Positions 22,525-60,565 are shown, numbered from the stretch's first letter. The stretch is DNA of 64,000 nucleotides from Nitrospirota bacterium (GCA_029858565.1 JAOUEV010000012.1:278-64277); one strand, 5' to 3'. The notes: generated from the letters alone by a model not told the origin. Numbers and translations are program-made.

Positions 22525-23745
22525 TCACTTCCACCGCCGCGGATCGTAATCTCCCGTCATCACCCGACGCACCGCCTGCCAGAGCATCTGACGGCCCCAG
22601 GAGAACCGGCCCCAGGGCGCAAGGAACTTCGCGGTATCCTTCAGCACGATCATCTTTTCCCGCATGCTCCGCTTGGCCAGGGTGCCCATGAAATCCGCCT
22701 CATGGGGACGGCCGAAGAGGATCTTCATGATGTTCCACTGGTCCGAGCAGCGCCGGACCTCGCTCGCGATCATGGACCGGTAGATCTCCTGGACCGGCCT
22801 GTTCCCGCGGAAGGCCTCGATCGCTGCCTCACCGGCGATCGCTCCCGAATGGAGCGCCGCGGACATTCCCTCGGCGATCATGTTCAGGAATCCCGCTGCC
22901 TGGCCGGTGACCAGAATATTTCCGCGGCCGAACACGTAGCGGTTGATGAGCGACAAGCCGAAGTTGTTCACGCTCGTCTCGCGCAGATCGCAGGGCCCCA
23001 GCCGTACGCCGTGCCGCTCCTCAAGATACGTCAGGGTCCTGGCGTGGCGCTCGGCCAGGTCAGTTCCTGCCTCGTAGCCCACGCCCACGATCTGGCGGCC
23101 GCTCCGCTGATGGCTCCAGGTATAGAACCCGAGGCCGGGATGGAACCAGAAATGGAAGTATTCGGGATCGAGCGGGCAGTCGATGATCTCGTGGAGATGC
23201 TGCTTGACCGTGAACCAGGCAATGGCATCACGATATCCGGGATAGAGCCCTCGCACCACCTGGGAGTTCGGGCCGTCAGCGCCGATCACGTAGCGAGCCC
23301 GGTAGTGCTGCTCCCCGTCGTCGTGGTTCCGGGCGATCACGTCCACATGGGTCCCGTGGTCAACGGCGCTGTGGAAACGCAGGTTGTCGTGCACGGTCAC
23401 GCCGCTCCGCTTGATCGCCCAATAGTCCGAGTAGGTGCGGTTCAGATGGGGCGTGGTGCCTCCGTCAAAGTCCATGGGCAGATCAACGCCGCCGGGAAAG
23501 TAAAAGGTCACGCCGCGGCAGGCAGTGGGATCGTGCAGTACTTCTTTTGGCAGGGGGCCGAAGTTCTCGATCAGGAACCGGTGGCCCCGGGGAGAGATGA
23601 TCCCGCTGCAAGGCTTGTTCCGCGGCAGGGGAAAGCGTTCCAGCGCGATGGTCTCGTAGCCAGCGTCAACAAGCCGCTTTGCTACCGCGGCAGCCGACAG
23701 GCTCGCGCCCACAATGATCACGTCAGCGGTCCTGCGCCGGCTCAT
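22525..23745 (-). CDS. FAD-dependent oxidoreductase (geranylgeranyl reductase-like / FixC-like family)
   Basis: N-terminal ADVIIVGASLSAAAVAKRLVDAGYETIALER dinucleotide-binding motif; 406 aa. Stop overlaps the upstream gene start (operon). Confidence 0.7.
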   Translation of the reverse strand: MSRRRTADVIIVGASLSAAAVAKRLVDAGYETIALERFPLPRNKPCSGIISPRGHRFLIENFGPLPKEVLHDPTACRGVTFYFPGGVDLPMDFDGGTTPHLNRTYSDYWAIKRSGVTVHDNLRFHSAVDHGTHVDVIARNHDDGEQHYRARYVIGADGPNSQVVRGLYPGYRDAIAWFTVKQHLHEIIDCPLDPEYFHFWFHPGLGFYTWSHQRSGRQIVGVGYEAGTDLAERHARTLTYLEERHGVRLGPCDLRETSVNNFGLSLINRYVFGRGNILVTGQAAGFLNMIAEGMSAALHSGAIAGEAAIEAFRGNRPVQEIYRSMIASEVRRCSDQWNIMKILFGRPHEADFMGTLAKRSMREKMIVLKDTAKFLAPWGRFSWGRQMLWQAVRRVMTGDYDPRRWK

Positions 23746-24683
23746 GGCTCAGCCACCTCCGCAAGATGCACCACCGGGAGCGATGTGTGCTTCCGGAAAG
23801 CCGCGCCGTCCTCAAGATGCTCCACCACGATGCGCTCGGCGCTCCGCCCTTCCAGGAGCCATTTGATCTGCGCCTCGACCGAAACCAGAGCCTGATGGTT
23901 CATGCGGTATTGCGCGCTCATGGCGCCGGTCGGCGTCGCGACCCGGTGAAGGTCCAGGTTCATGAAACACCCGGTCTTCTGCCTGAGCGATTCATACTGC
24001 ATCACCAGTTCCCCTCGCCGGCCGTTGAATGTCCTTGTTTCGATTATATAGAGGTCCGTGCGCTTGATACCTCTGCGCACCTGCGCGCTCTCCAGGAGCG
24101 CCTGGCCCAGGCCGCGCACGCGGACCTTCGGTCCGAGCAGGGTGGACAGGAAATTCACCATCATGCCGTCCGACGCGATGATCTCCCGCGCATCCCGCAG
24201 CGGAGCGAGAAAATCCTCGAGCCGCTTGTCATCGATCTCCGTGCCGCACTCCAGATCATGGCAAATGTCGGTCCCGTCGTCGGCCGCGCACAGGACCCTG
24301 TTGCCCAGAAGCCGCTCACATTGCTCGAGGACCGGCTTGTGATCGCGGAGTGTCTGACCCGGCAGGAACAGCGCCTCCGACCGGACCTGGCCGGTCTGAC
24401 GGGACCGATGGTGCGTGCCGATGACCTGAAGCAGTCCGCGTTTTACCAGCTGCTGGCGCAGGGAAAGCGTCGCGCGCTGGGTATCCATGCCCCGGGGACA
24501 AAGGGGCTCGCAGGACCCGCAGAGAATGCAGGCCTGTGCTGATTCCGCCAGGTCCTCTTCTGCCGCGCCGTTCGCGATCAACCGCGCCCGTCCGCACATG
24601 GTCAATGCCTGGGTGTGGCTCTGCTGCCAGACGGGGCAGGAGAGCATGCAGACCCCGCAGCCGTTGCAATCATTGTGACTCAA
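23742..24683 (-). CDS. (Fe-S)-binding protein, GlcF/LutA-like (two CxxCxxCxxxCP ferredoxin motifs + CCG-like domain)
   Basis: CNGCGVCMLSCPVWQ and CILCGSCEPLCPRGMD motifs followed by a Cys-containing C-terminal domain; 313 aa. Confidence 0.7.
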   Translation of the reverse strand: MSHNDCNGCGVCMLSCPVWQQSHTQALTMCGRARLIANGAAEEDLAESAQACILCGSCEPLCPRGMDTQRATLSLRQQLVKRGLLQVIGTHHRSRQTGQVRSEALFLPGQTLRDHKPVLEQCERLLGNRVLCAADDGTDICHDLECGTEIDDKRLEDFLAPLRDAREIIASDGMMVNFLSTLLGPKVRVRGLGQALLESAQVRRGIKRTDLYIIETRTFNGRRGELVMQYESLRQKTGCFMNLDLHRVATPTGAMSAQYRMNHQALVSVEAQIKWLLEGRSAERIVVEHLEDGAAFRKHTSLPVVHLAEVAEP

Positions 24684-26290
24684 AATATCACATCCCGGTT
24701 CAGGATCATCGCGGGATCCACTTCGCGCTTCATGGCCAGATGCTTGTCCACCAGTTCATCGCCGAACACACGCCGTATGTAGCCCTTCATCATGCCGCCG
24801 AAGCGGTAATAGCTCGTGCCCATCTGCACGCCGATGTCGTAGATCTCGTTCTTGAAAGCCTGGATATGGTCGCGGCTGTAGGTCTTTCCCTCCAGCATGG
24901 GTTCGAACTCGCATCCGTAAGCAATGTCCTCGGCGTCAGGCGGGATGCAGGAAAGCTCGTACCGTTCTTTCGGTCCGATCAGCTTGATGCCCACGCAGTA
25001 GAGCGTGTAGTGGGGAAAATACTTCCTGCATACTTCGTTGCCGCGGAGCACCGCTTCAATGAACTTCCCACGGCTCGTTGCAAGGTCCGGGATGACCATC
25101 TGCCTGCCGCCCCAGAACTTCCAGACCGCCTGGGAAAAGACCACGGTCCGGTCCACGATCCTGTTGTCCCGGAGATGGTGGCTGGGCTTGAGCGCAGGAA
25201 GGAGCGTCCGCTTCCGGTTCAGCAGATAGAGAGCCTCGCGGAACTTCCAGGGCCGGAGCAGGTAATGCATGCCCAGGGTCAATGCGAAGCGCGCTTCGCC
25301 GAACCCCCGGAGACGGGGCCGCCATTTGCGGAAGAATTCCTTTTCCCGCTCCTCGGAGTCGAACGCGACGAGCAGGTTCACGGCCCGGTCGAGCATGGTC
25401 AGGATACCCATGTAGTCCGCCGCGTCCTCCTCGCTCACCATGACCAGGTCCTCCATGGCCTGTTTCAGGTCCTGGTAGTAGAAATAGTGCATGGTGATGG
25501 GTGTGAACGGACGGATGCGCAGCGTAGCTTCGGTGATGATACCGAACTGGCCGTAGCCGAGCAGGACCCGGTTGAACCACCAGGGGTTCTCGTTCTCCGA
25601 GCACCGAAGGATCTCACCCGTTGGCGTGACGATCGTGAGCGCCAGCGCCTGGTCCGCGCTGCACCCGAGCCGCGGGGAGTTGATGTCAATGCCGCCGACG
25701 CCGAGCGTGCCGCCGACGGAAGAGGTCATGTTCAAGGGCGCGGAAAGGTAGTCCAGCCCCTGCCGCCGGAGGGATTCCGCAAGGGAATGCCAGTAGATCC
25801 CGGCTTCGCACCGCACGGTCAGCTTTGACGCATCGATCTCCAGTACCCGGCTCATGCCGCGCATATCGAGCTGAAGCCCGCCGAAAGAAACGGTCTCGCC
25901 CTCGGTAGTGAGACCTCCCCCGCGTACGGTCACGGGCACGCGGTGCTGCTGCGCAGCCGCGAGGATCCCGGCCACCACTTCAGTCGAACGCGCCACCACC
26001 ACGCCATGAGGCAGGCCGTGGGCAATGCCTCCGGCGTCGGATTGATAGAGCGTGCGGGCAGACCGCCGCTCGTCAACCGCGATGCCCCTGTTTACGAGGT
26101 CCGTTACAAAAGACTGCCAGCCCTCGCCCTGCCATCTGCAGGGGTTGGTCTGCTGGCGCGGGATGCCGATAAGGGAATCGGAAGCGACATTGCAGGGAGG
26201 GATGACGCCTGGGCCGGGAGCTTGGATCGCGATAGGCTGTGGTTTGAACCTGGTTTGCATAGGCATTTTTCTTTCGATGAACAGCCTCAC
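24680..26290 (-). CDS. FAD-linked oxidase (PCMH-type FAD-binding domain, GlcD / D-lactate dehydrogenase-like)
   Basis: FAD-binding segment HGVVVARSTEVVAGILAAAQQHRVPVTVRGGGLTTEGETV...GVGGIDINSPRLG. First of three overlapping minus-strand genes. Exact start uncertain (alternative Met at ~26266). Confidence 0.7.
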   Translation of the reverse strand: MRLFIERKMPMQTRFKPQPIAIQAPGPGVIPPCNVASDSLIGIPRQQTNPCRWQGEGWQSFVTDLVNRGIAVDERRSARTLYQSDAGGIAHGLPHGVVVARSTEVVAGILAAAQQHRVPVTVRGGGLTTEGETVSFGGLQLDMRGMSRVLEIDASKLTVRCEAGIYWHSLAESLRRQGLDYLSAPLNMTSSVGGTLGVGGIDINSPRLGCSADQALALTIVTPTGEILRCSENENPWWFNRVLLGYGQFGIITEATLRIRPFTPITMHYFYYQDLKQAMEDLVMVSEEDAADYMGILTMLDRAVNLLVAFDSEEREKEFFRKWRPRLRGFGEARFALTLGMHYLLRPWKFREALYLLNRKRTLLPALKPSHHLRDNRIVDRTVVFSQAVWKFWGGRQMVIPDLATSRGKFIEAVLRGNEVCRKYFPHYTLYCVGIKLIGPKERYELSCIPPDAEDIAYGCEFEPMLEGKTYSRDHIQAFKNEIYDIGVQMGTSYYRFGGMMKGYIRRVFGDELVDKHLAMKREVDPAMILNRDVIF

Positions 26291-26504: not shown

Positions 26505-28700
26505 TTATTCCTGGGAAGGCTGGAACCACCCATGGGTGATCCCCCATATCCCTGGATCATGACAATTGATGGCGCATGACGTGGGGTAACTCCCAAGAGT
26601 CACCGCAGCCCCAATAAGGCTGTACTGATCTCCGCCGATCCCGGCGTAATGGTCATACAGCATAGAATCATGCACCCAGCCCCATTGCGTGTTCGAACCG
26701 TGCACTTCGTGACAGGAATTGCAGACGATCGATGATAAGATCGACCCACGATACTTCCATCCGTCGGGTTCCGTCTGCAGGTGCAGCATGTGAAGATTGA
26801 TATAGGTTCCGAAGAGCGGCAAGTCATCGTAAGCCTTCCCCGTGATCCCAAGGTTCACATCTCGGAACCGAGTCTTTATGTTGGGAATCGTATACGCAGG
26901 TAATGCACCAGAGGTGTTGAAAAGGTCCACCGCATAGTTCCCGCCAGCCTGCATTCCCAGAATAGCCTCCTTCGACACGGCGCCGTACGCTGCGTGGCAC
27001 GCAAAGCACAGATCATAATCGCTCTCATCAGCAGTGGTGAAATAAGTTGTCTTCGTGCTCGGCAGCGTCAGATTCCTGGCCAGCAGACCGACATTCGCGG
27101 TTCCATGCCCGTTCCCGTGGCATCCGGTGTTCACGCTTCCGTTCCCCACACAGGTCAGCCCCTTTAGCTTATGACCGAAGCTCTTGCTCCAGTTCGCGCT
27201 GATCTCGGCGCTGGCCCTGTAGGGCGCTATCCCGATCGTCGAGCCGTCGTTGAACGGTGCTGTAGACGTACCGCCGGTGATGAACGTCGAGGTCGCGCCA
27301 GAGGCATCATGGCAGCTCAAACAGAATGGTTCAAGTGTCGATGCTGTTGAGTAAGCTATTGTTGCTCCCGTATCCCCGTTCCGGAGACGCACGGTCCCGC
27401 CCATATGTATGGACATGTCGTGACACACGAGGCACTGTTCGGTCAATGGATCGTTCCCCGGTCCACGCGTCACGTGGTGCGATTTATTCGCGGCATTCGC
27501 CCCAAAGTCCCCGCTCGCGCCCATTACCGGCCGACGCGTGCCCATGGCGTTCACATGGCAGAGCCAACAGGCCGGAGCACTCACGCCTGCGGTGCCGTAC
27601 CACGCCGGTGTCTCTCCGGCGTGACAGTCCGTTGTAGCGCACGCACCGGTCTCCTGGCCTGTGTCCGCGGTCCAGGTGCCGCTTGTATTCGTGCTGTCGA
27701 AGTAGACGAGCAGCACCGTCGGGTCAGGTGTGTCGAGCACACCGCTGGCATGGGATGGACGGCTAGGATAGTTCAGGTGACATTTGGAACAGGAGAAACC
27801 TATGCTCCCCACATGCTTGCTGTGCTTGCCCGCAACGCCGCTCCCGTTCGTGAGCAGTGGATCGAGGACCGTCGAGTAGGCAGCCGTGTGACAGGTCGTG
27901 CAGGTCGCCGGTAGCGCCCAGGTTCCGCTCCCGTACCACGACAGCGTATCCGCCCCGTGGCAGGAGATCGTAGCGCACTGGCCGGTGCGGGCTCCGGTAT
28001 CGTTCGTCCAGGTGCCGGTAGTCGCTACGATATTGAAGATCACCAGGTTTTTTGAAGGATCGGCAGTATCCAGCTGGCCGTTCGCATGGGTCGTTTGACC
28101 GGGATACTGATAGTGGCATCGTTCGCAATCGATGGCGCGTGAGGTCACATGTTTGACATGCCGTCCTGCTGGAGCTGTACCGTTTATTACTGCCGGATCG
28201 AGCTCCCGGGAAAAAGTGGAGCTGTGGCAGGTCGTGCAAGCAGGCATCGTCCAGGTGGAGCCGTACCAGTTCACCGTGGCGTTCCCATGGCACGCGACGC
28301 CTGCGCAGCTGCCTGTACCCGGGCCAGTGTCGTTCACCCATGCACCCGAGGGGCCGACAACGCTGAGAGAAACGAGGCTCACCGTCGGGTCACCGGTATC
28401 AAGGGTCCCGTTCATGTGCGTGGCGGTGTTCATATACCCGCTGTGGCAGCGCTCGCAAGGGATCTGACGTTCGCTGAAATGCTTCACATGCCTGCCGTAA
28501 GTGCCGGATCCGTTCGTGACCAGGGGATCAAGGGCAGCAGAGTTCGTGCTGCTGTGGCAACGGACGCACTCCGAGAACGGCTCGCTGGAATGGGGCTGCC
28601 GTGCGAACAGGGAGTCCGGACCGTGGCCTGAATTGCAGCCTGCCGCGATCAACAGCAGGACCGCTGAAAGTAATGCGCGATACGCGTTCATCGGAAACAC
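26505..28700 (-). CDS. Large multiheme c-type cytochrome lipoprotein (OmcB-like extracellular cytochrome), ~11 CxxCH + 4 CX3-4CH motifs, three ~95-aa tandem repeat modules
   Basis: Lipobox LIAAGC. CxxCH motifs: CVRCH, CERCH, CTTCH, CERCH, CTTCH, CSKCH, CWLCH, CLVCH, CLSCH, CFACH, CNSCH. CX4CH in each repeat (CAGVACH, CATISCH, CATTDCH) and CAINCH. Repeat unit CxxCHS..LDP..NG..G.HVKH...CxxCH..TH.NG.LDT.DP...W.NDTG..TG.CAxxxCHG..WYG. Confidence 0.8.
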   Translation of the reverse strand: MFPMNAYRALLSAVLLLIAAGCNSGHGPDSLFARQPHSSEPFSECVRCHSSTNSAALDPLVTNGSGTYGRHVKHFSERQIPCERCHSGYMNTATHMNGTLDTGDPTVSLVSLSVVGPSGAWVNDTGPGTGSCAGVACHGNATVNWYGSTWTMPACTTCHSSTFSRELDPAVINGTAPAGRHVKHVTSRAIDCERCHYQYPGQTTHANGQLDTADPSKNLVIFNIVATTGTWTNDTGARTGQCATISCHGADTLSWYGSGTWALPATCTTCHTAAYSTVLDPLLTNGSGVAGKHSKHVGSIGFSCSKCHLNYPSRPSHASGVLDTPDPTVLLVYFDSTNTSGTWTADTGQETGACATTDCHAGETPAWYGTAGVSAPACWLCHVNAMGTRRPVMGASGDFGANAANKSHHVTRGPGNDPLTEQCLVCHDMSIHMGGTVRLRNGDTGATIAYSTASTLEPFCLSCHDASGATSTFITGGTSTAPFNDGSTIGIAPYRASAEISANWSKSFGHKLKGLTCVGNGSVNTGCHGNGHGTANVGLLARNLTLPSTKTTYFTTADESDYDLCFACHAAYGAVSKEAILGMQAGGNYAVDLFNTSGALPAYTIPNIKTRFRDVNLGITGKAYDDLPLFGTYINLHMLHLQTEPDGWKYRGSILSSIVCNSCHEVHGSNTQWGWVHDSMLYDHYAGIGGDQYSLIGAAVTLGSYPTSCAINCHDPGIWGITHGWFQPSQE

Positions 28701-28712
28701 TCTCCTCCTGTC

Positions 28713-29267
28713 CTACTTATGACAGTGACTGCAGTCAACGGCCGGATTCACCGGATGAGGCGCGGAAACATGGAGCGCCCGTTTGTGACAGACATTGCAG
28801 TTGTCCGCCGGGACCGAATTCGAGGCGAAATGGCACCCTCCGCAGTGCCTGCTGCGCCAGCTCGCGGTATGGGTGCGCGGCGCGGTCTCGCTGTGGCACC
28901 GGACACAGTAGTCCTGTCGGTGGCAGGCAAGGCAGCGGTCACGGTTCCCTGATGCGGAGAGACCGTGGCCCCGAGTGCGCCAGAAGTTCCCGTGGTCCCG
29001 CGGAGCCTGCATGGTATGGCAGGCTGTGCAGTCGTTCCGTTCATGGCAGGTGGTACACTCCGTGCCGGGGCGATTTGCGCTCATGCCCAGAGCCGCCACT
29101 TCCCTGCCGTGATATTCGAGCCATTTAGCCCTGTGAGACTCCGGCTTCGGAAAAGGGATCCTCGTGTCGTTGCCCGGACCCTGTTCTCCTGCGGTTGCGG
29201 CACCGGAAAGAGCGGCAAACAGCAGCACCATCATCCATGGTTTGGCAAGGCACCTGTTAAAAGTCAT
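28713..29267 (-). CDS. Periplasmic heptaheme c-type cytochrome (OmaB-like)
   Basis: Signal peptide then seven CxxCH motifs (CTTCH, CTACH, CLACH, CVRCH, CGGCH, CNVCH, CSHCH) in ~185 aa. Sits between the barrel and lipoprotein-cytochrome genes. Confidence 0.8.
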   Translation of the reverse strand: MTFNRCLAKPWMMVLLFAALSGAATAGEQGPGNDTRIPFPKPESHRAKWLEYHGREVAALGMSANRPGTECTTCHERNDCTACHTMQAPRDHGNFWRTRGHGLSASGNRDRCLACHRQDYCVRCHSETAPRTHTASWRSRHCGGCHFASNSVPADNCNVCHKRALHVSAPHPVNPAVDCSHCHK

Positions 29268-30657
29268 AGCGCATCCCCAGCCGCAGGGTATCGTAGTTCT
29301 CGATACCATGCTCATGTTCGAACGTCGCGTTCGCGGAAAGCTCCGGTACGAAGGGATACTGGGCCGAACAATAATATGCGCGCACCTGCTCCCGGGCGCC
29401 CAGCGTAAGGTAGTAATCGTAGCGGTAGAGGCTGTATGCGCTTCCGACGCTGATCCTGGCCTCCCGTTTATTGATCTTTTTCAGCACATAGGACAGATCC
29501 GTGCTCGTTGTATGGAACTTCCTTGTCCCGCTTTCCCACTCCTCCGCGGTCAGGGTCCAGGACAATCCCGCGAGCCCCAGGTCCGACACTTCCACGCCGA
29601 GGTATTTCCTTGAGTATTCCCGATCAAAGGGTCCCTGGTCAGCCGGCGCGTCCAACAACGCCCGCTTGAAATACCCCAGGTCCGCGGAGATCCATTCGGT
29701 GAAATGCTTCCGCAGCCGGATATCATAGGACTGGTACGGAGCGCTCTGACCCAGCACATCGTAGAACGGTGATAGTTCGTTGCTCCGGACCTCCTGCGTG
29801 CGGAATTGCCGGAAGTAGCTGACCAAAGCCTCGCCACCCTCTTCCGACGAGGCTGCGAACGCCTTGAGCGTAATATCGCGGGGTTCGCTGTTCTGGAGCC
29901 GGTACTTTGCCGACACATTGCCCATCGATGAGATCCTCTGCCAGGCCTTGAACGATACCAGGCTGTCATGGACGGTCCCGTTGTCAGCAGGCAGCTCCTG
30001 TTCATCATCGACCACCATGATGTCGGCGCTCATGCCGGTCCCGGGCAGCGGCTTGAGGTCGATGCCCGCTCCCTGCACCCTGTCCGTTCCGTAATGGCCG
30101 TTCACTTCAGAGAAATGGGCCGCGGTCCCCAGATAGAGCGAGAGGTTCACCTTCTCGCCGGCAAGGTCCATGTCCGCGGCTATGCCGTCGAAGAACACCT
30201 GCTCGTCACGATTGCCCGCCTGCCTGCCGATCCGCATGCTCGTGTCCGGACGCACCTGGTCGCTCAGGAGAACGTAAGCCTCATACACGGTGCTGGTGGT
30301 ACGGCGATCATGGGTGTTGTTGATGTCCTCGAAGGGAGAATAGAACGCCACGGTCTGGTTCCCGTCCAGGTCCGAACGGCTCGCGCCGAGGAAATGGAAC
30401 TCCGGCGAGCCGCTGGTCGGCCGCTTGACATCCAGCCGTAGGTCCGCGAACACGTCGCGGTCCGCGTACTGCGCGGCTGGATCATCGGTTGATCGTGAGA
30501 TGTATTTGGTGGAAAAGGAACCGTTCACCTGGTAGGAGAGCGGGGCGGGAACAACTTCTTCGGCATAAGCGGCCGCAGGAAGCAGCATGGCCGCGAACGC
30601 AAGCGCGCGGAACCACGCGCGCAGACAGCCCCCCCTTGTGATGCCGCGACTCACCAC
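29257..30657 (-). CDS. Outer-membrane beta-barrel (porin-like) protein of a porin-cytochrome conduit (OmbB-like)
   Basis: Signal peptide (AFAAMLLPAAAYA-EE), 466 aa, alternating beta-strand pattern, C-terminal ...LRLGMRYDF with terminal aromatic. Operonic with the two cytochrome genes. Confidence 0.65.
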   Translation of the reverse strand: MVSRGITRGGCLRAWFRALAFAAMLLPAAAYAEEVVPAPLSYQVNGSFSTKYISRSTDDPAAQYADRDVFADLRLDVKRPTSGSPEFHFLGASRSDLDGNQTVAFYSPFEDINNTHDRRTTSTVYEAYVLLSDQVRPDTSMRIGRQAGNRDEQVFFDGIAADMDLAGEKVNLSLYLGTAAHFSEVNGHYGTDRVQGAGIDLKPLPGTGMSADIMVVDDEQELPADNGTVHDSLVSFKAWQRISSMGNVSAKYRLQNSEPRDITLKAFAASSEEGGEALVSYFRQFRTQEVRSNELSPFYDVLGQSAPYQSYDIRLRKHFTEWISADLGYFKRALLDAPADQGPFDREYSRKYLGVEVSDLGLAGLSWTLTAEEWESGTRKFHTTSTDLSYVLKKINKREARISVGSAYSLYRYDYYLTLGAREQVRAYYCSAQYPFVPELSANATFEHEHGIENYDTLRLGMRYDF

Positions 30658-30811
30658 GATGTCCCCCCCGTAGTGAGGATAATAGTATGAGCGCTCCTGC
30701 TTGTCAATGAAAGAGTCGCTGCCGAACGTTGCATTTTGAAGCGGGCAAACTTTATTCGCGCTTCTCCGATTTCCTGTTGAATTCAGCAGGCAAGTCCGCT
30801 ACAATCGGGCC

Positions 30812-31396
30812 ATGCGTCAATACATGCTTCTTGCCGTCACGATCCTTATATACATCGCTGGTACCGCAGCAGGCCAGCAGGAACCCTGTCTTGACTGCCA
30901 TCCTGACAAGCAGGAAGGAAAGGTCGTGCACGCGGCCATATCCATGGGCTGCGCTTCATGCCATAGCGGCACCCATTCAGGCGAAAAACCCGCGCCCAAG
31001 CTGATCTCAGCAGTGCCCGATCTCTGCTTCTCCTGCCATGACAGCGCCATGGTATCCGGAACCGTTCCCCATCCTCCGGCAAAGGACGGTCAGTGCACCT
31101 TCTGCCACTCGCCTCACAGCTCGGACCAGCCCGCGCTTCTGTCCCAGCCTGCCCCCGCGCTCTGCGGCAGCTGTCATGATAAACAAGCGACAGGCAGACA
31201 TGTGATGTCGCGTTTTGGCCCGAATGATTCCCATCCCATCTCGGGCAAGCCTGATCCGTCGCGCATTGGCAAGACGCTTTCCTGCGCAAGCTGCCACCAG
31301 CCCCATGGCGGAAACCTCAAGAGGCTCTTTCCCGCTGCTTCCGCCAACGGCCTGCCCTGCATGACATGCCACACAAAGATCTCGGCAGCTCCGTGA
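30812..31396 (+). CDS. Heptaheme c-type cytochrome (divergently transcribed from the conduit operon)
   Basis: Signal peptide; CLDCH, CASCH, CFSCH, CTFCH, CGSCH, CASCH, CMTCH. Confidence 0.8.
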   Translation: MRQYMLLAVTILIYIAGTAAGQQEPCLDCHPDKQEGKVVHAAISMGCASCHSGTHSGEKPAPKLISAVPDLCFSCHDSAMVSGTVPHPPAKDGQCTFCHSPHSSDQPALLSQPAPALCGSCHDKQATGRHVMSRFGPNDSHPISGKPDPSRIGKTLSCASCHQPHGGNLKRLFPAASANGLPCMTCHTKISAAP

Positions 31397-31438: not shown

Positions 31439-31909
31439 ATGCGGTCATCCATCCTGTTGCTCTACACGCTCACGCTTTCGCTCTGGGTCGGCGGCATCAC
31501 GATCTTCACTTTCATTGTCACCCCCGCGATCTTCCGGTCCTACAACCGCGACATGGCAGGCGAGATCGTTGGCAGGCTTTTTCCCGGCTACTTCACCTAC
31601 ACGCTCGCGCTCTCTGCCCTGGCATTGCTCCTCTTCTTCCTGCTCGGCGCTGACCGCTCAACGAAAGCGTTCCAGCTTTCCCTTGCTCTTCTGACCCTCG
31701 CGCTCCTGGCGAATGCCTATGTCAGCTTCAAGCTCCATCCCGACACCGTCCGGATCAAGCAGCAGGTGACATCCTTTGAACGCGAACCGTCTGACTCTCC
31801 GGCGCGCAGGGAGTTCCGCCGTCTCCATGCCATCAGCGCGGTGGTGAACCTGTTCGTGCTCGCTGACGGCGTAACGTTGCTGGTCCTGAGCAAAAGACTG
31901 ATAAACTGA
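31439..31909 (+). CDS. DUF4149-like integral membrane protein
   Basis: 156 aa, 4 predicted TM helices, pattern LWVGGITIFTFIVTPAIFRSYNRDMAGEIVGRLFPGYF typical of DUF4149/TMEM205-like proteins. Confidence 0.5.
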   Translation: MRSSILLLYTLTLSLWVGGITIFTFIVTPAIFRSYNRDMAGEIVGRLFPGYFTYTLALSALALLLFFLLGADRSTKAFQLSLALLTLALLANAYVSFKLHPDTVRIKQQVTSFEREPSDSPARREFRRLHAISAVVNLFVLADGVTLLVLSKRLIN

Positions 31910-32351
31910 CCATGCGGCGCATTCACTACGGAAAAGCGGGCTTCACCGGCGTGATGGCCCTCTACGGCATCCTCTGCGCCTATCCGTGTACGTGAAGGAC
32001 GCGCAGGCCATGGCACTGCCGCTTGTATCCGTGGGCGGAGGAGAGGATGTCATCCACGACTGGAACTTTCTTCTCTCGCATATCGGGCTGCTGCGCTGGG
32101 ATCAGCAGGTCGGCACGTTCCTGTACCTTCTCGGCCTGATCATTATTCTCACGTCGGTCGTCGCCGCGGGGTATTGGTCCGTTGATCAACAGGAGGATGC
32201 CGCTCCCTGAGCCGGACATACCGGCCCTGCTTGCGCGTCCCGCTCCCCGGACCGGCCTTTCCTGTCCACTTCACCCCATTCCGCGTTCCGAATCCTTCAT
32301 TCCCCATGGCTTCACCTTGACCTTCCCTTGCTCCTCGTCTACACTTGACTC

Positions 32352-36892: not shown

Positions 36893-39800
36893 TTGATGAA
36901 AGACGCCCCCAAACCAAAAAAAACCCTGAAGAAACGAACCGGTGCGCCGCGGTCCGCAGGCCGCAGGCCTGCAATGCAGGACGATCGTCTCGACGACCAG
37001 CTCCTGCACGAGCAATCCCGCGTACTGTTCGAAACCATGTCGCAGGGCGTCGTGTTCCGCGATCACGAGGCAAGGATCGTTGCCGCCAATCCTGCGGCTG
37101 AGCGTATCTTCGGCAGGAGCCTCAAGGACCTCGCGGGAAAGACCAGCGCCGAAGTGCATTTGAACGCGCTCGGCGAGGACGGGAAACCGCTTGCACCCGA
37201 CCAGTTTCCCGCGGAGACCGCGCTCCGTACCGGGAAACCGGTGACCGACTTTATCCTTACGATCCAGAATCCCGGAGATGTTCGGCGTCGCTGGATCAAG
37301 GTGAACGCCATTCCTTTTTCCCTGCGTGATTCACCGAAGCCGCTGGTTTACGTCCTGTTCGAGGACATCACAGAACGCCGCCAGATGGCGCTGGAACTGG
37401 AAAAGGCCCGCGATCATCTGGAGCAGGAGGTCCAGCAGCGCACCAGGGAGCTGATGAACGCCAACGAGGCGCTCGGCACGGAGATCGCGGTCCGTGAACG
37501 CGCCGAGTCTGCATTGCGGGACAGTGAAGAACGCTTCCGCAGGCTTGCGGAGAATGCCCAGGACCTGATCTATGTCTATCGTCTCGTTCCGGACCGTCGG
37601 TTCGAATTCGTAAGCCCCTCCTCGACCGCGGTCACCGGTTACACCCCCGAGGAGCACTACGCCGATCCCGACCTGGGCATGAAGATCGTGCACACCGATG
37701 ACCGCCGGAAGCTGCTTGATATGGCAAAGATCGCCGCGATCCCCTCTGAGCCCCTGGTCCTGCGCTGGGTGCGCAAGGACGGCCGGATCATCTGGACCGA
37801 GCAGCGCAATATTCCCATCACCGATGCCGCGGGCAGGACCGTGGCCATCCAGGGCATTGCCCGGGACATCACCGACCGGATCAGGATGGAGGAGAAGCTT
37901 CAGGCGAACGAGCGCTTCCTGCAGACGATCATCGAATCGGAGCCCGACTGCGTCAAACTCCTGGCACGGGACGGCACGCTCCTTATGATGAACCGGGCGG
38001 GTCTCGCCATGATCGGCGCGAAGTCCATCGATATGGTGCAAGGCAGATCGGTCTATGGGATCATCCTTCCTGAATACCGGCCCGGCTTCATAGCTCTCAC
38101 GGAATCGGTGTTCGACGGCAAGTCAGGGACTCTGGAGTTCGAAGCCGTGGGATTCAAAGGACGCCACATCTGGCTAGAAACCCACGCCGTCCCGCTCCGG
38201 GATGAGCAGAACGAGATCATTGCGGCACTCGGCCTCACCCGGGACATCACGGAGCGAAAGCGGATGCAGGAAAAGCTCCGGGAAAGCGCGGAAAGCCTGC
38301 AGGAAGCCCAGCGCCTGGCTGCCATCGGCAGCTGGGAATGGCTTCCCCGCACCGGAGAGTTTCGCTGGTCGCTCGAAACCTGCAGGATCCTGGGAATTGC
38401 CCCGTCCGCGGAACCGGCCTACGAAACATTTCTGCACGCTGTTCACGATCAGGACCGCGAGAGCGTGACCCGGGCGCTCGACGCCGCGCTCCGGCGCAAA
38501 CAGCCCATCGACATAGAGCACCGGGTCATCCGTCAGGACGGGAGTGTTCGCATTGTTCACTCACGCGGCCAGATCACCTGCGACCCCACCGGGGAGCCGG
38601 TCCATATTCTCGGCACATTGCAGGACCTCACCGAGCGGCGACGCGCCGAGGACCTGCTGCCGCGCATAGCCCAGCAGATATCGGAAAAGACCGGGGACGA
38701 CTATCTTCGCGCTGTTGCTGAGTTCACGGCAAGGGAACTGGGAACCGACATCGCCTTCATAGGCGAGATACCCGGTCCCGGCAAGCTTGTGCGCACGGTC
38801 ACGGTCTACGCACAGGGACGGTTTGTCGAAAACTTTGAATACGATCTCCAGAACACACCCTGCGACAACGTCGTGGGGAAAACCGTATGCTTCTATCCCG
38901 ACCGCATCCAAGCCATCTTTCCGAAGGATACCATGCTCGTTGACAGGGGTATGCACAGCTTCGCGGGGATACCGCTTTTCTCGTCCGAAGGAGATCCGGT
39001 GGGCCTTCTTGCAACGCTCGGTTCGCGGCCGATGCAGCCGGGCGATCGGGACCGCATCGTCACGCTCCTCCGGATATTCGCGGGCCGCGCATCCGCCGAA
39101 CTCGAACGCAGGCGTTCGGAAAAAGCGCTCCAGGAGAGCGAAAAGCGCTATCGTCAACTGCTCGAGTCGGTCACCAGTTACATTTACACGGTCACGATCG
39201 AGCAGGGCAGGGCGGTCTCTACCGTCCATGGCTCGGCCTGCGCCGCTGTCACCGGTTACACATCAGCCGAATACGCCGCGGATCCCTTCCTGTGGTACCA
39301 AATGGTCCATGATCCGGACAAGCCCGCTGTTCTGGCCCAGGCGGCCCACGTCATGGCCGGAGGAAAACCCGAACCCCTGGAACACCGTGTTCGCCACAAG
39401 AACGGAAAGCTGGTCTGGATCCGGAATTCCGTGGTGCCCCGGTACGACGACAAGGGCCGGCTTACCTCCTATGACGGCCTGATCGTGGATATCACGGAGC
39501 GCAAGCGGACCGAGGATTTTGTGCGGAACATCCTGGATGCCGTTGATGAAGGCTTCATTGTGATCGACCGCGATTACACGATCATTGCAGCGAACCGAGC
39601 CTATTGCGGACAGATAGGCCTTCCCGCGGGGGATGTCGTGGGAAAGAAGTGCTATGCCGTTTCCCACAAGATCTCCGGCCCCTGCTATCAGCATGGAGAG
39701 GAGTGCGCGGTGCGCACGGCCTTCGAAACCGGCAGGCCTCACAGCGTCGACCACACCCACCATGGCGGTGAAGGAAGGCCTCTTGTTGTCGAGACGAAGG

Positions 39801-41029
39801 CGTTCCCGCTGAAGGACGAATCAGGGAACATTTTCGCCGCTATCGAGATCGTGAACAATATGACCGACCGCCATCGCCTCGAGGACCAGCTTCGCCACGC
39901 CCAGAAGATGGAGGCTGTCGGACTGCTTGCAGGCGGCGTTGCACACGACTTCAACAATATCCTCACGGCGATCGTGGGATACGGAAATCTCCTGAAGATG
40001 AAGACCGCCGGTGACGATCCGCGGCAGACCTACATAGACCAGGTGCTGGGATCGGCTTCGCGGGCTGCGAACCTTACCCAGAGCCTGCTCGCCTTCAGCC
40101 GCAAGCAGATGATCTATCCCCAGCCCATGGACCTGAACGACACGATTCGCAGGGTAGAACGTCTGCTCCAGCGCGTCATTGGAGAGGACATCGATCTTCG
40201 CACCGAGCTCTTTTCCAGCGCGGTCACGATCCTGGCAGACTCAAGCCAGATCGAGCAGGTCCTGATGAACCTTGCTACGAACGCGCGGGATGCGATGCCC
40301 CGCGGCGGCAAGCTCACGATCAGCACCGACACCGCTGTCATTGATGACACCTTCAAGCGGCACCATGGATTCGGGATTCCCGGCACCTATGCCCGCATCA
40401 CCGTTGCCGACTCCGGCGCAGGCATGGACGAGGCTACGCGCGGCCGCATCTTTGATCCTTTTTTCACCACCAAGGAGATGGGAAAGGGTACCGGTCTGGG
40501 GCTTGCGATCGTCTATGGTATCATGAAGCAGAACAGCGGTTACATCACCGTGGAAAGCGAACCCGGCAAAGGCTCGTCCTTCCGCCTCTATTTTCCACTG
40601 ATCGCGGAAGCAGCAAAGGAGACACCGGCCGCCGAGCAGGCGACCTACCAGGAGGGACACGAAACCGTGCTCGTTGCCGAGGATGACACTGCCCTCAGGC
40701 AGTTGACCAGGACCATGATGACCGAGTTCGGGTATACGGTCATCGAGGCTGTTGACGGCGAGGATGCGGTGAGGAAGTTCCGGGAGAACCAGGAGCGCGT
40801 TCAGCTGGTGATCCTTGACGTGGTCATGCCGAAGAAGAACGGCCGCGAGGTACGCGACGAGATCCGGGCGATCCGGCCCGATGCCAAGGTGCTGTTCATC
40901 AGCGGCTACGGCGCCGACATCCTCGCATCCAAGGGGCTGGGCGAAGGGACTGATGAGTATCTGCTCAAGCCGGTCTCGCCTATGGACCTGCTCCGCAAGG
41001 TGCGCAAGGTCCTTGACAGCGCCAAATGA
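36893..41029 (+). CDS. Hybrid sensor histidine kinase: multiple PAS domains (+GAF-like region), HisKA, HATPase_c, C-terminal receiver
   Basis: 1378 aa. Repeated PAS signatures; H-box [17 protein letters not shown]; G-boxes [22 protein letters not shown]...GTGLGLAIV; receiver [13 protein letters not shown]...[11 protein letters not shown]...KVLFISGY. One PAS region has a Cys-rich insert ([19 protein letters not shown]). Confidence 0.9.
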
Positions 41030-47039: not shown

Positions 47040-48287
47040 GTGTCGTGTTTAATGAATATGCCCTTAGCGCGCGAACGAAAGCTCTACAGGACCTTTATGG
47101 TGACCGTCAGTCTGGTCATCACCCTGGCCCTGTCTGCGGTCTTTCTCGGTATGGCGATCAGGACGCGCCAGCTGATCAGCGAGGAAAACGTGGTGCGGGC
47201 CCGCTCGCTTTTCAACAGCATCATCCTTGCGCGCGAATGGAACGCTCATTACGGCGGCGTATTCGTGGAGAAAAAGGCGGGCGTGTCGTCCAATCCCTAT
47301 CTCAGGAATCCGGACATCCGGACCAGTGACGGCAAGACATACACAAAGCGGAACCCGGCCCTGATGACCCGGGAGATCTCCGAACTGGCTGCGCGAAAAG
47401 GGCTGTTTACCTTCCATATCACCAGCCTCAAACCCCTCAACCCGGCGAATACCGCAGATGCCTTTGAGCAATCGGCGCTGAAAAATTTCGAAACAGGATC
47501 TGCCGAGCAATTCATGACTGATAGGGCCGGCGGAGCGTTGTTCCGCTACATGGCGCCGCTCTTTGTGGAGCGTCCCTGCCTGCAGTGTCATGAACACCAG
47601 GGCTACCGGATCGGCGACGTGCGGGGCGGTATCAGCGTCAGCTTCGACGTGCAGGACGTTGCCGCCAAGATACGGAACAATACCCTCGCCATCATCTTCT
47701 TCTCTTTCCTTACCATCCTGTCGCTGCTGGGACTGATCTACTACTTCTCCATGCGGCTGATCAAGAAGATGTACGAGGCGAGGCGGCATATCGAACGCCT
47801 GGCCACGATCGACGGGCTGACGGGAGTGTTCAACCGGCGCCACCTGGTTTCCCGGTTCGTCGTCGAATTCGCGCGCGGCCGGAGGCACAAGAAACCCCTG
47901 GGCTGCATCATCCTGGACCTCGACCGCTTCAAGAACGTCAACGACACCCACGGGCATCTTACCGGCGATAAGGTGCTGAAGGAGGTTGCCCTGCGCCTCT
48001 CTACGTCGGTCCGTGATTATGACATCCTGGGCCGCTACGGGGGCGAGGAATTCCTCGTGGTGCTGCCGGAGACCGGGGTCGCGGAATGCACGCGGCTGGC
48101 AGAGCGGATCAGGTCCGTCATTAAGGAACAGCCGATCGAGGGCATCACGGTCACAGCCAGCCTGGGTGCGACCGTCTCTTCAGACCGGGACGAAACCATC
48201 GACGACATGGTCAAGCGGGCTGATGATGCCCTGTACCGCGCCAAGGACGAAGGCCGGGACCGGGTGATCTTTACCTCGCCGGCATAG
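47040..48287 (+). CDS. Diguanylate cyclase (GGDEF) with periplasmic heme-c (CxxCH) sensor domain, DUF3365-like
   Basis: TM - periplasmic ~180 aa containing CLQCHEHQ - TM - GGDEF domain (LDLDRFKNVNDTHGHLTGD, RYGGEEF). Start could be one of the Met residues at 47040-47058. Confidence 0.8.
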   Translation: MSCLMNMPLARERKLYRTFMVTVSLVITLALSAVFLGMAIRTRQLISEENVVRARSLFNSIILAREWNAHYGGVFVEKKAGVSSNPYLRNPDIRTSDGKTYTKRNPALMTREISELAARKGLFTFHITSLKPLNPANTADAFEQSALKNFETGSAEQFMTDRAGGALFRYMAPLFVERPCLQCHEHQGYRIGDVRGGISVSFDVQDVAAKIRNNTLAIIFFSFLTILSLLGLIYYFSMRLIKKMYEARRHIERLATIDGLTGVFNRRHLVSRFVVEFARGRRHKKPLGCIILDLDRFKNVNDTHGHLTGDKVLKEVALRLSTSVRDYDILGRYGGEEFLVVLPETGVAECTRLAERIRSVIKEQPIEGITVTASLGATVSSDRDETIDDMVKRADDALYRAKDEGRDRVIFTSPA

Positions 48288-59383: not shown

Positions 59384-60565
59384 TTGAAAATCATGTCACA
59401 TCGCTCATCACATAACAATGCGCAGTCCCCGTCCAGAGGCGAGAAAGAAGACCTGCTGTTGCGTCTTGCCCTGACCGAACGGAAGCTTTCCCTCACCACA
59501 CAGAAGCTGGAAGCCAGGAATCAGGAGCTTTCGGCCATTTATCGTCTTTCCGAGACCATTGGCAGCGAGCATCATATCAACCGTCTTTGCGAAAAGACCG
59601 TTGAGGAGATCCAGCACACCCTTGGAGCCGGCACGGTCTCGATCCTTCTTCGCGACCATCACACCGGCGATCTGGTAACAGCAGCCACCACCGGCAGGTC
59701 CGGTGAAAGCCTGACCCGGCCCCGCATCAAGCCCGGCGACGGGCTGCTCTGGCAGGTGGTGAAGACCGGCAAGCCGCTTCTGCTTCCCAGCGTCCGGACA
59801 GTGAAAGCATCAGGCGCCAGGACGAGTCCGGCGGGGATCGCGGCTCCGATCAAGACCAAGGATAAGACGCTCGGCGTGATCTACGCTCTGGGCAAACAGA
59901 ATGACCAGGAGTTCACCGCGCGCGAGCGCGACCTTCTGAGCGGCATCGCCAACCAGGCCGCAGTGGCCCTGGACAACGCCACGCTCTACCACGATCTCGA
60001 GAACGTCTTCGTGGGCATCGCCTGGTCCTTTGCATCGGCGCTGGACGCCAAGTCGCCCTGGACCGCGGGCCATTCCAAGCGGGTCACGCAGTATTCCGTT
60101 TCCATTGCCGAGGAACTGAACTATCCGGCAGAATTCCTGCACTCGATCAGGACCTGCGGCCTGCTGCACGACATCGGCAAGATCGGGATCTCAGAGAAGA
60201 TCCTGGACAAGCCCGGCGCCATCACCCGGGCGGAGCACAAGACAATTGCCGAGCACGCCATCCAGGGCGCAAAGATACTTGAGCATATCGACACCTTCCA
60301 GCCTCTCCTGCCGGGCATCCGGCACCACCATGAACGATGGGACGGACGCGGCTTTCCCGACGGCCTGCGGAACGAGGATATTCCGGTGCTGGCCCGGGTG
60401 CTCGCTGTCGCGGACTCCTACGACGCCATCACCTCGGACCGGCCCTACCGCAAGAAACGGAGCCGCGCCGACGCGATCGCGGAGATCAAGCGCTGTTCAG
60501 GCACCCAGTTCGACCCCCTGGTCGTGGAAGCCTTTGTCGCTGTTTCTGCCCACGAAGCGTTTTAA
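59384..60565 (+). CDS. GAF + HD-GYP domain protein (c-di-GMP phosphodiesterase)
   Basis: GAF region (~aa 60-200) then HD-GYP: HSKRV...CGLLHDIGKIGI...HHERWDGRGFPDGL. Promoter-like TTGTAT-17-TAATAT at 59339-59367 and an ATATGCA/TGCATAT inverted repeat just downstream of it. Confidence 0.85.
   Translation: MKIMSHRSSHNNAQSPSRGEKEDLLLRLALTERKLSLTTQKLEARNQELSAIYRLSETIGSEHHINRLCEKTVEEIQHTLGAGTVSILLRDHHTGDLVTAATTGRSGESLTRPRIKPGDGLLWQVVKTGKPLLLPSVRTVKASGARTSPAGIAAPIKTKDKTLGVIYALGKQNDQEFTARERDLLSGIANQAAVALDNATLYHDLENVFVGIAWSFASALDAKSPWTAGHSKRVTQYSVSIAEELNYPAEFLHSIRTCGLLHDIGKIGISEKILDKPGAITRAEHKTIAEHAIQGAKILEHIDTFQPLLPGIRHHHERWDGRGFPDGLRNEDIPVLARVLAVADSYDAITSDRPYRKKRSRADAIAEIKRCSGTQFDPLVVEAFVAVSAHEAF

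Follow-up and report, generated by a model that had tools for sequence, protein, structure and literature searches.

A porin-cytochrome module in an uncultured Nitrospirota bacterium, predicted to form a trans-outer-membrane electron conduit and related to the Pcc pair of anammox bacteria

Introduction

Porin-cytochrome (Pcc) systems pair an outer membrane barrel with multiheme cytochromes. In Geobacter sulfurreducens, the OmbB-OmaB-OmcB and OmbC-OmaC-OmcC modules each consist of a barrel of 18 to 22 strands, a small periplasmic cytochrome, and a large lipoprotein cytochrome (PMC4245776). The published pair of Ca. Kuenenia stuttgartiensis, kuste4024/kuste4025, has a cytochrome of 338 aa with 14 hemes; Shi et al. 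recovered Kuenenia-type loci with G. sulfurreducens OmbB/OmaB/OmcB queries and called them "distantly related to the rest" (PMC4245776). A Brocadia orthologue of this pair is expressed during electrode-dependent anammox (bioRxiv 10.1101/855817). Heme-rich variants have also been described from neutrophilic Fe(II) oxidisers, in which the PCC3 cytochromes have medians of 21 and 34 hemes and a five-helix inner-membrane protein bearing two HX13H motifs is conserved in PCC3/PCC4 (He et al. 2017, PMC5566968). Within the Nitrospirota, 'Ca. Manganitrophus' has porin-dodecaheme PCCs as candidate Mn(II) oxidases (PMC9040806).

Here, we analyzed a 64,000-nt stretch of DNA (the window) from Nitrospirota bacterium GCA_029858565.1 (JAOUEV010000012.1:278-64277), in which a module at positions 26,505 to 31,396 had been read in an earlier note as an ombB-omaB-omcB-like conduit. 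We compared its genes with protein family and structure databases and with 73 related loci, found with a profile of the barrel, from Nitrospirota, Planctomycetota (including Kuenenia and Brocadia), SAR324, and Proteobacteria. The machine is of a known type and belongs to an uncharacterised family, which is also present in anammox bacteria.

Results

All five open reading frames were found at the coordinates named beforehand, and the minus-strand order proposed for three of them (barrel, 7-heme cytochrome, ~15-heme lipoprotein cytochrome) was borne out down to the heme motifs, whose densities cannot be a product of chance. The barrel gene (29257 to 30657, minus strand) encodes the expected 466 aa ending in RYDF (C terminus …GMRYDF). 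Its N terminus is signal-peptide-like (…LLPAAAYA followed by EE), and the protein has neither a heme motif nor a plug domain. Failure to be predicted as an outer membrane beta-barrel had been named as grounds for refutation; instead, a barrel of ~22 strands is predicted. The protein matched nothing in Pfam (E ≤ 0.1) or NCBIfam, including the MtrB_PioB and Ext-family models, and its profile retrieved nothing meaningful from PDB sequences. Its family comprises 744 clusters at 50% identity and lacks a Pfam or NCBIfam model. A sigma-70-like promoter match (TTGACA-17-TATTAT, 11/12 positions, a consensus match only) lies at 30679 to 30707 on the minus strand, 22 nt upstream of the start codon of the barrel gene; of the 11 promoter-like sites found (2.4 expected in shuffles), it scores best.

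Directly 3' of the barrel lies a gene for a periplasmic heptaheme cytochrome c (28713 to 29267, minus strand; 184 aa, 7 CXXCH). Although the reading frame extends to 29315, the ATG at 29267 is the likely true start; the resulting 11-nt overlap with the barrel stop (ATGACTTTTAA) recurs in 17 related loci, and a gene of the same length is called on a Logan contig. The N terminus is signal-peptide-like, and the mature protein of ~158 aa would carry one heme per ~23 residues. Its alignment to the 12- to 14-heme partner cytochromes in relatives covers their C-terminal half; PDB sequences returned only noise (E ~0.7).

The third minus-strand gene encodes a predicted outer membrane lipoprotein cytochrome (26505 to 28691; reading frame to 28700, 731 aa). 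Database calls begin at Met4, giving 728 aa. The ~15 hemes claimed earlier resolve into 15 motifs of three spacings (11 CXXCH, 3 CX4CH, and 1 CX3CH), and a CX9CH (C517…C527-H528), invariant in 39 homologues, may bring the total to 16. All 33 cysteines are then assigned, to 16 motifs and to lipobox Cys22, which is likewise invariant; 4 of the 16 motifs are both non-standard in spacing and invariant. Besides the lipobox, the protein has three tandem triheme repeats of ~112 aa (0 to 6 copies in homologues), a region resembling MtrC/MtrF domain II/IV (Pfam, E 6.5e-11), and a C-terminal domain. The protein also scores 29.4 bits (cut-off 27) against NCBIfam TIGR01904, the Geobacter-type CxxxxCH…CXXCH domain. 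PDB sequences yielded no match; the AF2 model is of low quality (pLDDT 62, pTM 0.41), and with it Foldseek found no structural match in the PDB.

Divergently upstream of the barrel, as in most Nitrospirota-type loci, is a gene for a periplasmic MtrA/DmsE-like cytochrome (30812 to 31396, plus strand) with 7 CXXCH in paired-CXXCH units (Pfam Paired_CXXCH_1, E 4e-29). It matches residues 206 to 324 of MtrA (6r2q_A, E 1.4e-10), falls below the cut-off of the DmsE family TIGR03508 (66 bits versus 192), and gives only partial matches of ~20 bits to ExtN/ExtO/ExtS (NCBIfam cut-offs 100 to 200). Relative to 9-heme orthologues, it is short of one 46-aa diheme unit. The gene and its seven hemes are thus as first described; the label "extra" does not hold, since this cytochrome is a conserved fourth component of Nitrospirota-type loci. 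Downstream, the DUF4149 integral membrane protein said to adjoin the cluster is present (31439 to 31909, plus strand; Pfam E 1.7e-19). This gene, whose product contains two His in total, occupies the same position in only 5 related loci and is a lineage-specific neighbor.

Conservation across the related loci delimits the module. A homologue of the small cytochrome lies directly 3' of the barrel in 69 of the 73 loci, the remaining four stopping at a contig edge, and this adjacency is kept across at least five phyla. Identities of barrel and small cytochrome to the window proteins co-vary strongly (Spearman 0.82, 64 loci), compared to 0.62 for barrel and large cytochrome. The small cytochrome is an obligate partner of the barrel. 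Around Nitrospirota-type barrels, conservation is limited to four families (barrel, small cytochrome, large lipoprotein cytochrome, and divergent MtrA-like cytochrome), and this four-gene unit travels as a block among otherwise unrelated neighborhoods. The complete module is found in Acidiferrobacterales, Betaproteobacteria, and Gammaproteobacteria MAGs as well (L026, L009, L073), and related barrels have 12-heme partners in SAR324 (L024, L027). The large cytochrome is missing or replaced in anammox and many Planctomycetota loci. Many hosts belong to Thermodesulfovibrionia-type sulfur-cycling lineages. A search starting at L070, the barrel farthest from that of the window, gave only 29 matches, in Desulfobacterales, Deltaproteobacteria, and Spirochaetota MAGs.

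The wider window encodes LpxC and a CcmH-type TPR protein, which fit a host that has an outer membrane and matures cytochromes c; the host is an uncultured, LPS-bearing Nitrospirota bacterium. Anaerobe-type genes are present (hcp, ADP-forming acetyl-CoA synthetase, and an adjoining FAD/FeS dehydrogenase), and no oxidase or carbon-fixation genes were found near the module in the window. An inner-membrane quinol dehydrogenase is neither in the module nor conserved beside the related loci. The downstream FAD/FeS genes (22525 to 26290) were considered as part of the module and rejected, as homologues occur in no related locus; the first of them has its own promoter-like site. Module GC (0.59 to 0.60) is close to that of the whole window (~0.59), a comparison that showed no compositional sign of recent transfer, and Rfam and tRNA scans of the 64 kb gave no matches. 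The earlier note had also suggested redox-responsive c-di-GMP control. The genes it cited are all real: a GGDEF protein with a Tll0287-like domain at 47040, a GAF plus HD-GYP-type protein (HD_5) at 59384, and a Prismane/hcp gene (62941 to 63999, minus strand) cut by the window end. However, they lie 16 to 32 kb away, beyond LpxC, an ABC transporter, gyrA, and other housekeeping genes, and none is conserved beside related loci. We therefore rejected control of the module by c-di-GMP or a redox sensor as unsupported.

We next compared the module with described systems. Every component type by which Shi et al. 2014 define a Pcc has a counterpart here: a porin-like barrel of about 18 to 22 transmembrane strands, an adjacent periplasmic multiheme cytochrome (5 to 14 hemes; here 7 CXXCH), and, in most cases, an adjacent outer membrane lipoprotein multiheme cytochrome (here predicted from Cys22 and 15 to 16 motifs). 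Their operational definition also asks for BLAST similarity (E < 0.01) to G. sulfurreducens OmbB/OmaB/OmcB, to which the module is linked indirectly, through the Kuenenia-type loci of its family. Homology ties the module to the anammox pair. Six Kuenenia/Brocadia MAG loci (L040, L046, L047, L056, L059, L060) were recovered by barrel-profile tblastn (E 2e-29 to 1e-22; local blastp 4e-30 to 1e-22), and their barrels belong to the same family as the window barrel, with 24 to 26% identity over most of the length (profile-guided tblastn, E 1e-22 to 5e-27). In the Kuenenia loci (L047/L059/L060), the barrel is followed by a 338-aa cytochrome with 14 CXXCH; from genus, length, and heme number, we infer these to be kuste4025 orthologues. 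The window small cytochrome is 36 to 40% identical to them (E ~1e-25) and aligns to their C-terminal seven heme sites. The anammox Pcc has the same order as the window, barrel then cytochrome directly 3', but its partner has 13 to 14 hemes, of which the 7 in the window represent the C-terminal half only. Absent synteny with known porin-cytochrome clusters, the other outcome named as refuting, is contradicted by this order, which is kept in related loci including Kuenenia. The Nitrospirota module adds the predicted 15- to 16-heme surface lipoprotein and the divergent MtrA-like cytochrome, both absent from anammox loci.

With Geobacter OmbB-OmaB-OmcB, the window shares three product types, their order, and the TIGR01904 domain of the large cytochrome. 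Heme numbers differ (7 versus 8 in OmaB; 15 to 16 versus 12 in OmcB), and unlike the Geobacter Pcc, the module has a conserved MtrA-like cytochrome and no adjoining OrfR/OrfS-type regulator. No Geobacter or Desulfuromonadales protein was among the listed relatives of the barrel or large cytochrome, in searches that give best matches or need shared words or motifs. The description "ombB-omaB-omcB-like" applies to architecture only. The module falls outside MtrCAB/MtoAB/PioAB, which have an MtrB/PioB barrel of 26 to 28 strands and a decaheme MtrA/DmsE partner: compared with these systems, the window barrel has ~22 strands rather than 26 and lies outside MtrB_PioB (Pfam), its coupled partner is not its MtrA-like protein (which has 7 hemes, not 10), and its large cytochrome differs from the decahemes of the OmcA/MtrC family. 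Nor were there NCBIfam equivalog matches to the Geobacter Ext clusters (ExtHIJKL and the selenite-tellurite operon models). By description, PCC3/PCC4 and the 'Ca. Manganitrophus' PCCs resemble the module in being context-defined sets of a porin with periplasmic (and sometimes extracellular) cytochromes, repeat-rich and heme-dense, and, like it, they are uncharacterised and come from uncultured lineages, Nitrospirota among them. The window cytochromes have far fewer hemes than those of PCC3, and, unlike in PCC3/4, the sole membrane neighbor is the DUF4149 protein, with its two His and its 5 loci. The DFE clusters of D. ferrophilus were rejected as the closest system, as they encode NHL beta-propeller proteins and no barrel (PMC5815863).

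Discussion

Taken together, these data suggest that the locus encodes a self-contained porin-cytochrome conduit across the outer membrane, a reading to which we assign a probability of roughly 0.8 on the basis of sequence, models, and genomic context. In predicted architecture, the module would work like Geobacter OmbB-OmaB-OmcB. Electrons from an inner-membrane quinol dehydrogenase encoded outside the module would first reach the MtrA-like cytochrome (30812 to 31396), a soluble heptaheme protein that may act as a periplasmic shuttle to the very heme-dense heptaheme cytochrome (28713 to 29267). Translational coupling would make the latter 1:1 with the ~22-strand barrel, through which it is probably threaded as an insulated heme wire. 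In MtrCAB (6R2Q), the multiheme MtrA sits inside MtrB, and the 22-strand barrel of TonB-dependent receptors houses a plug of ~150 residues; the similar size of the ~158-aa mature heptaheme protein was counted in favor of a barrel-embedded wire. The wire would touch the lipoprotein cytochrome (26505 to 28691) at its putative location on the cell surface, from which three triheme repeats and an MtrC-like core (15 to 16 hemes) could deliver electrons to an insoluble or macromolecular acceptor, with Fe(III)/Mn(IV) minerals, humics, or a partner cell as candidates.

For this conduit, outward flow is somewhat favored. The same machine could run inward, as MtoAB/PioAB do, with the surface cytochrome oxidising a donor outside the cell (Fe(II), Mn(II), reduced sulfur or minerals, a cathode, or a syntrophic partner) and passing its electrons through the barrel-embedded heptaheme wire and the MtrA-like cytochrome to the respiratory chain; we regard this as possible, if doubtful. 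Multiheme conduits are reversible in principle, as is established for Mtr/Mto. The Acidiferrobacterales, Betaproteobacteria, and Gammaproteobacteria often contain iron or sulfur oxidisers, and the full module in such MAGs counts in favor of inward flow, at least for some hosts. The 12-heme partners in SAR324 point the same way, as do the dodecaheme candidate Mn(II) oxidases of 'Ca. Manganitrophus' (PMC9040806). However, no oxidase or carbon-fixation genes were found near the module and the window carries anaerobe-type genes instead, the family's sole expression evidence, in anammox, comes from electrode-reducing and hence outward conditions (10.1101/855817), and large multi-repeat cytochromes at the surface typify reducers (MtrC, OmcB) and are missing from Mto/Pio (PMC4245776).

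In some enzymes, a non-standard motif is the mark of a catalytic heme, as with CX15CH in MccA and CXXCK in NrfA. The four invariant motifs of this kind in the large cytochrome, with their unusual CX3CH/CX4CH/CX9CH hemes, could indicate, in place of a mineral or electrode conduit, a redox enzyme system acting on substrates in solution or colloidal form (polysulfide/S0, selenite/tellurite, DMSO-like compounds, or humics), in which the large cytochrome is the catalytic reductase, possibly facing the periplasm, and the barrel mainly a substrate channel or anchor. The many sulfur-cycling hosts fit this proposal, as does Geobacter ExtI, a cytochrome-cluster porin linked to selenite uptake in work cited in PMC13510729. 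We nonetheless consider it improbable: the barrel is bound far tighter to the small cytochrome (gene overlap, rho 0.82) than to the large one (0.62) and has no NCBIfam Ext-family match, a triheme-repeat number varying from 0 to 6 is easier to reconcile with a wire or antenna than with an active site, and absence or replacement of the large cytochrome in anammox and many Planctomycetota places the conserved function in the barrel and wire. Least credible by far is fortuitous adjacency of an ordinary diffusion porin and unrelated periplasmic electron carriers, given an adjacency spanning at least five phyla in 73 loci, the shared 11-nt overlap, co-varying divergence, and movement of the four genes as a block between unrelated neighborhoods.

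More tentatively, the barrel and its coupled cytochrome might constitute a third, evolutionarily separate conduit lineage apart from Mtr and Geobacter Pcc, the Nitrospirota form having arisen when an ancestral 13- to 14-heme wire, reaching from periplasm to surface, was cut to its barrel-embedded seven-heme core and re-extended on both sides. Such a lineage would spread over Nitrospirota, Planctomycetota (including anammox bacteria), SAR324, Desulfobacterota-like, and Proteobacteria MAGs. Its recruited parts would be the MtrA-like periplasmic cytochrome and a surface lipoprotein with 0 to 6 triheme repeats and non-standard heme motifs. If true, it would give subsurface Nitrospirota a tunable mineral or interspecies electron route, possibly including electron uptake.

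The conduit reading overturns nothing; it carries an established mechanism into a lineage that has been little studied. Homology links the module to the anammox Pcc pair, the sole family member with expression data. Because the barrel family lacks a Pfam or NCBIfam model, HMM sets built on Geobacter and Shewanella and ordinary annotation may report only "hypothetical"; at ~4.9 kb, the module is a compact target for heterologous testing. Aquifers, deep fractures, sediments, and soils are rich in Thermodesulfovibrionia-type Nitrospirota, which are usually treated as sulfur and nitrogen cyclers. With a conserved, mobile conduit of four genes, they would be able to exchange electrons directly with Fe/Mn minerals, humics, electrodes, or partner cells, which bears on subsurface metal cycling and corrosion.

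Organization of the gene module

All five open reading frames (ORFs) listed in the earlier note were present exactly as described. On the minus strand, the order of transcription runs from the barrel gene (29257-30657; 466 aa, a signal-peptide-like N terminus, zero heme motifs, and a C terminus of …GMRYDF) through the small cytochrome (ORF 28713-29315; 7 CXXCH) to the large lipoprotein cytochrome (26505-28700; 731 aa, lipobox Cys22, 11 CXXCH plus three CX4CH and one CX3CH). The divergent cytochrome (30812-31396; 194 aa, 7 CXXCH) and a DUF4149 membrane protein (31439-31909; Pfam E = 1.7e-19) lie on the plus strand. For the small cytochrome, the ATG at 29267 is the most likely start codon (giving 184 aa); this ATG and the TAA stop of the barrel gene overlap within the 11-nt string ATGACTTTTAA, the commonest arrangement among related loci (17 loci). 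In database annotations the large cytochrome begins at Met4 (728 aa), and the NCBI protein OEW15_06370 from a Nitrospirota bacterium is identical to it. A strong sigma-70-like match to consensus (TTGACA-17-TATTAT) was found 22 nt upstream of the barrel start, together with a weaker sigma-70-like match oriented toward the divergent cytochrome. GC content over the 4.9-kb module showed no anomaly. LpxC and a CcmH-type TPR protein are also encoded within the window, which fits a diderm host that matures c-type cytochromes.

The same DNA was recovered at 99.98% on an ENA contig of 117.8 kb and a Logan contig of 7.1 kb. A small gene 3′ of DUF4149 (31912-32350, plus strand, in the window; 6262-6780 in L074) is intact on the ENA contig, where it encodes a 172-aa, membrane-like protein with a HEAGH motif and zero Pfam matches. 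At about 31982, 217 bp are missing from both the window and the Logan contig, which puts the gene out of frame there; either strain variation or a difference in assembly would account for this. Directly 3′ of the module, on the same strand, three oxidoreductase genes (22525-26290, minus strand; FAD_binding_4, 4Fe-4S dicluster, and FAD_binding_3) with their own promoter-like site at 26376-26348 look like a lactate/glycolate-dehydrogenase-type set. No homologues of these genes were conserved beside related modules.

The genes from which c-di-GMP control of the module had been proposed were indeed found: those for a GGDEF protein with a Tll0287-like domain of the heme-c sensor type (47040-48287) and a GAF-HD-GYP protein (59384-60565), and an hcp (Prismane) gene that runs off the end of the window (62941-63999). 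However, these genes lie 16-32 kb from the module, behind housekeeping genes, and no GGDEF/HD-GYP/hcp-type neighbors were conserved near related modules; the proposed control is therefore unsupported. The nearest regulatory gene, about 5 kb off (36893-41029, plus strand), encodes a 1,378-aa hybrid sensor kinase with many PAS domains and a receiver. The GGDEF gene is adjoined by a gene for an 811-aa protein consisting mostly of ankyrin repeats (48506-50941, plus strand), a composition unusual in bacteria.

The barrel belongs to an unannotated family with a conserved cytochrome partner

The barrel returned zero matches at E ≤ 0.1 against Pfam and NCBIfam, and its profile returned zero matches in a sequence search of the PDB. 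An AlphaFold2 model built from a 33-sequence alignment was confident (mean pLDDT 79, pTM 0.72). DSSP assigned about 22 antiparallel strands to this model, in keeping with the outer-membrane beta-barrel originally claimed; its periplasmic turns are very short and its outer loops modest. Since only about 10 residues precede strand 1 after the signal peptide, the predicted barrel lacks a plug domain. Searching 1.84 billion representative proteins with the barrel profile yielded 744 clusters at E ≤ 1e-3 and 347 at E ≤ 1e-30. Nearly all named matches were called "hypothetical protein"; the exceptions were one JGI entry labeled "predicted porin" and one labeled "opacity protein-like surface antigen." The barrel thus represents a real, sizeable, and unannotated family.

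Scanning one genome per species, we identified 73 loci with barrel relatives. Twenty-four are from Nitrospirota/Thermodesulfovibrionales-type metagenome-assembled genomes (MAGs; barrel identity 37-52%), and about 39 are from Planctomycetota, including "Ca. Kuenenia," Brocadia, and Anammoxibacter (24-30%). The rest are from MAGs of SAR324, Delta-, Beta-, and Gammaproteobacteria, Acidiferrobacterales, and Spirochaetes. A small-cytochrome homologue lies directly 3′ of the barrel in 69 of the 73 loci (E = 1e-18 to 1e-78); in the other four, the contig edge is reached downstream of the barrel. Identities of the barrel and its partner cytochrome to the window proteins co-vary (Spearman 0.82, n = 64). 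Homologues of the large cytochrome occur in 29 loci, comprising the Nitrospirota-type loci, one Spirochaetes MAG, and several Proteobacteria-labeled MAGs (two of these last matches are weak); the MtrA-like divergent cytochrome occurs in 24 loci and DUF4149 in 5. Clustering of neighbors within ±8 kb of the Nitrospirota-type loci recovered only four conserved families, those of the barrel and the small, large, and divergent cytochromes, indicating a self-contained four-gene module placed in otherwise unrelated neighborhoods.

In several cases, one MAG contains the whole module twice, as a pair of paralogues (L006/L018, L002/L020, and L003/L016). Within each pair, the MtrA-like protein has 9 hemes and the lipoprotein 15 motifs in one copy, against 7 hemes and 9-12 motifs in the other. 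Many Planctomycetota outside the anammox group have a different large cytochrome, of about 960-1,240 aa with 10 CXXCH motifs, after the barrel and its 13-heme partner (most clearly in L032, L036, L039, L042, L043, L055, L057, L062, and L065); no similarity between this cytochrome and the lipoprotein cytochrome of Nitrospirota was detectable. It would seem that the outer component can be exchanged.

Heme-binding architecture of the three cytochromes

The mature small cytochrome carries 7 hemes in about 158 aa, or about 23 residues per heme, and is denser in heme than MtrA (~33 residues per heme, as quoted in PMC5566968). This density is consistent with a bare heme wire that requires a protein sheath. 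The divergent cytochrome is made of paired-CXXCH units (Pfam E = 4e-29) and aligned with MtrA residues 206-324 (6r2q_A, E = 1.4e-10); its score against the DmsE-family model fell far under the cutoff. It lacks a 46-residue diheme unit found in 9-heme orthologues (L001, L004, L006, L007, and L010), and the 7-heme form recurs in the paralogous modules L016 and L018.

The large cytochrome contains three tandem triheme repeats of ~112 aa (CXXCH, CXXCH, CX4CH) with mutual identity of 46-54% (alignment scores 273-334 versus 32 ± 7 in shuffles); after the repeats come a segment similar to MtrC/MtrF domains II/IV (E = 6.5e-11) and a C-terminal domain. Across the 121 sequences compared, namely the window protein and homologues P0121-P0240 (n = 120), repeat copies range from 0 to 6, the commonest forms having 1 repeat (9 motifs) or 3 repeats (15 motifs). 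Repeat number differs even between close homologues: the L004 protein (508 aa, 61% identity) has a single repeat. These data suggest a modular surface wire of variable length. The ~15 hemes assigned to this lipoprotein in the earlier note agree with its 15 motifs, but the count may be one short. C517, C527, and H528, forming CX9CH, are invariant in an alignment of 39 homologues, and counting this motif takes up the last two unassigned of the 33 cysteines (16 motifs plus the lipobox). Because all 33 are then accounted for, a 16th heme with unusual spacing is possible, and CX9CH is a candidate site judging from sequence. The AlphaFold2 model of the large cytochrome was too poor for use, and no Foldseek-based fold match was found in the PDB.

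Relation to known porin-cytochrome conduits

In the definition of Shi et al. (PMC4245776), a porin-cytochrome (Pcc) cluster encodes a porin-like barrel of 18-22 predicted strands next to a periplasmic multiheme cytochrome with 5-14 hemes; in most cases an outer-membrane cytochrome is encoded as well. Among their clusters is a two-gene one from Kuenenia, termed "distantly related to the rest"; its cytochrome is quoted as 338-344 residues long, with 14 hemes (PMC4245776). Shaw et al. named this pair kuste4024/4025 and reported that its Brocadia orthologue is expressed in electrode-dependent anammox (bioRxiv 10.1101/855817). Our Kuenenia loci (L047, L059, and L060) show precisely this arrangement, a barrel and a 338-aa ORF with 14 CXXCH, and fit the published pair. 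The Kuenenia ORF is 36-40% identical to the window small cytochrome, which aligned with the seven heme sites at the C-terminal end of the 12-14-heme partners; unlike these, Nitrospirota-type small cytochromes lack the N-terminal six-heme extension. The module belongs to an uncharacterized barrel/cytochrome family, of which the anammox Pcc pair is also a member.

The description of the module as ombB-omaB-omcB-like holds for its architecture, but orthology with the Geobacter complex was not demonstrable. No Geobacter or Desulfuromonadales proteins were found among relatives in searches with the barrel or the large cytochrome, which report top-scoring matches or depend on shared words or motifs; the resemblance is therefore one of architecture. 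The sole support beyond architecture is a Geobacter-type CxxxxCH…CXXCH domain in the large cytochrome (TIGR01904, 29.4 versus a 27-bit cutoff).

Proposed electron route and direction

The locus is a genuine, well-formed porin-cytochrome module, and a conduit function is the best-supported reading. The heptaheme wire would be cotranslated with the 22-strand barrel and seated inside it, capped on the outer side by the lipoprotein cytochrome and fed from the periplasm by the MtrA-like cytochrome. Such seating is plausible because 22-strand barrels accommodate ~150-residue plugs and MtrA sits inside MtrB (6R2Q). No inner-membrane partner gene is present in the module. As to direction, flow from the cell to the exterior is favored by the anaerobe-type genes near the module and by the anammox expression data; inward flow is the less likely alternative, suggested by the occurrence of the module in lineages that often oxidize iron or sulfur.

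Pcc-type clusters are now commonly reported in MAG surveys (e.g., PMC13264449, PMC10732223, and PMC11475568). The useful, testable details here are the family-level link, the "half-wire" relation between the small cytochrome and its anammox counterpart, and the triheme array with its variable copy number.
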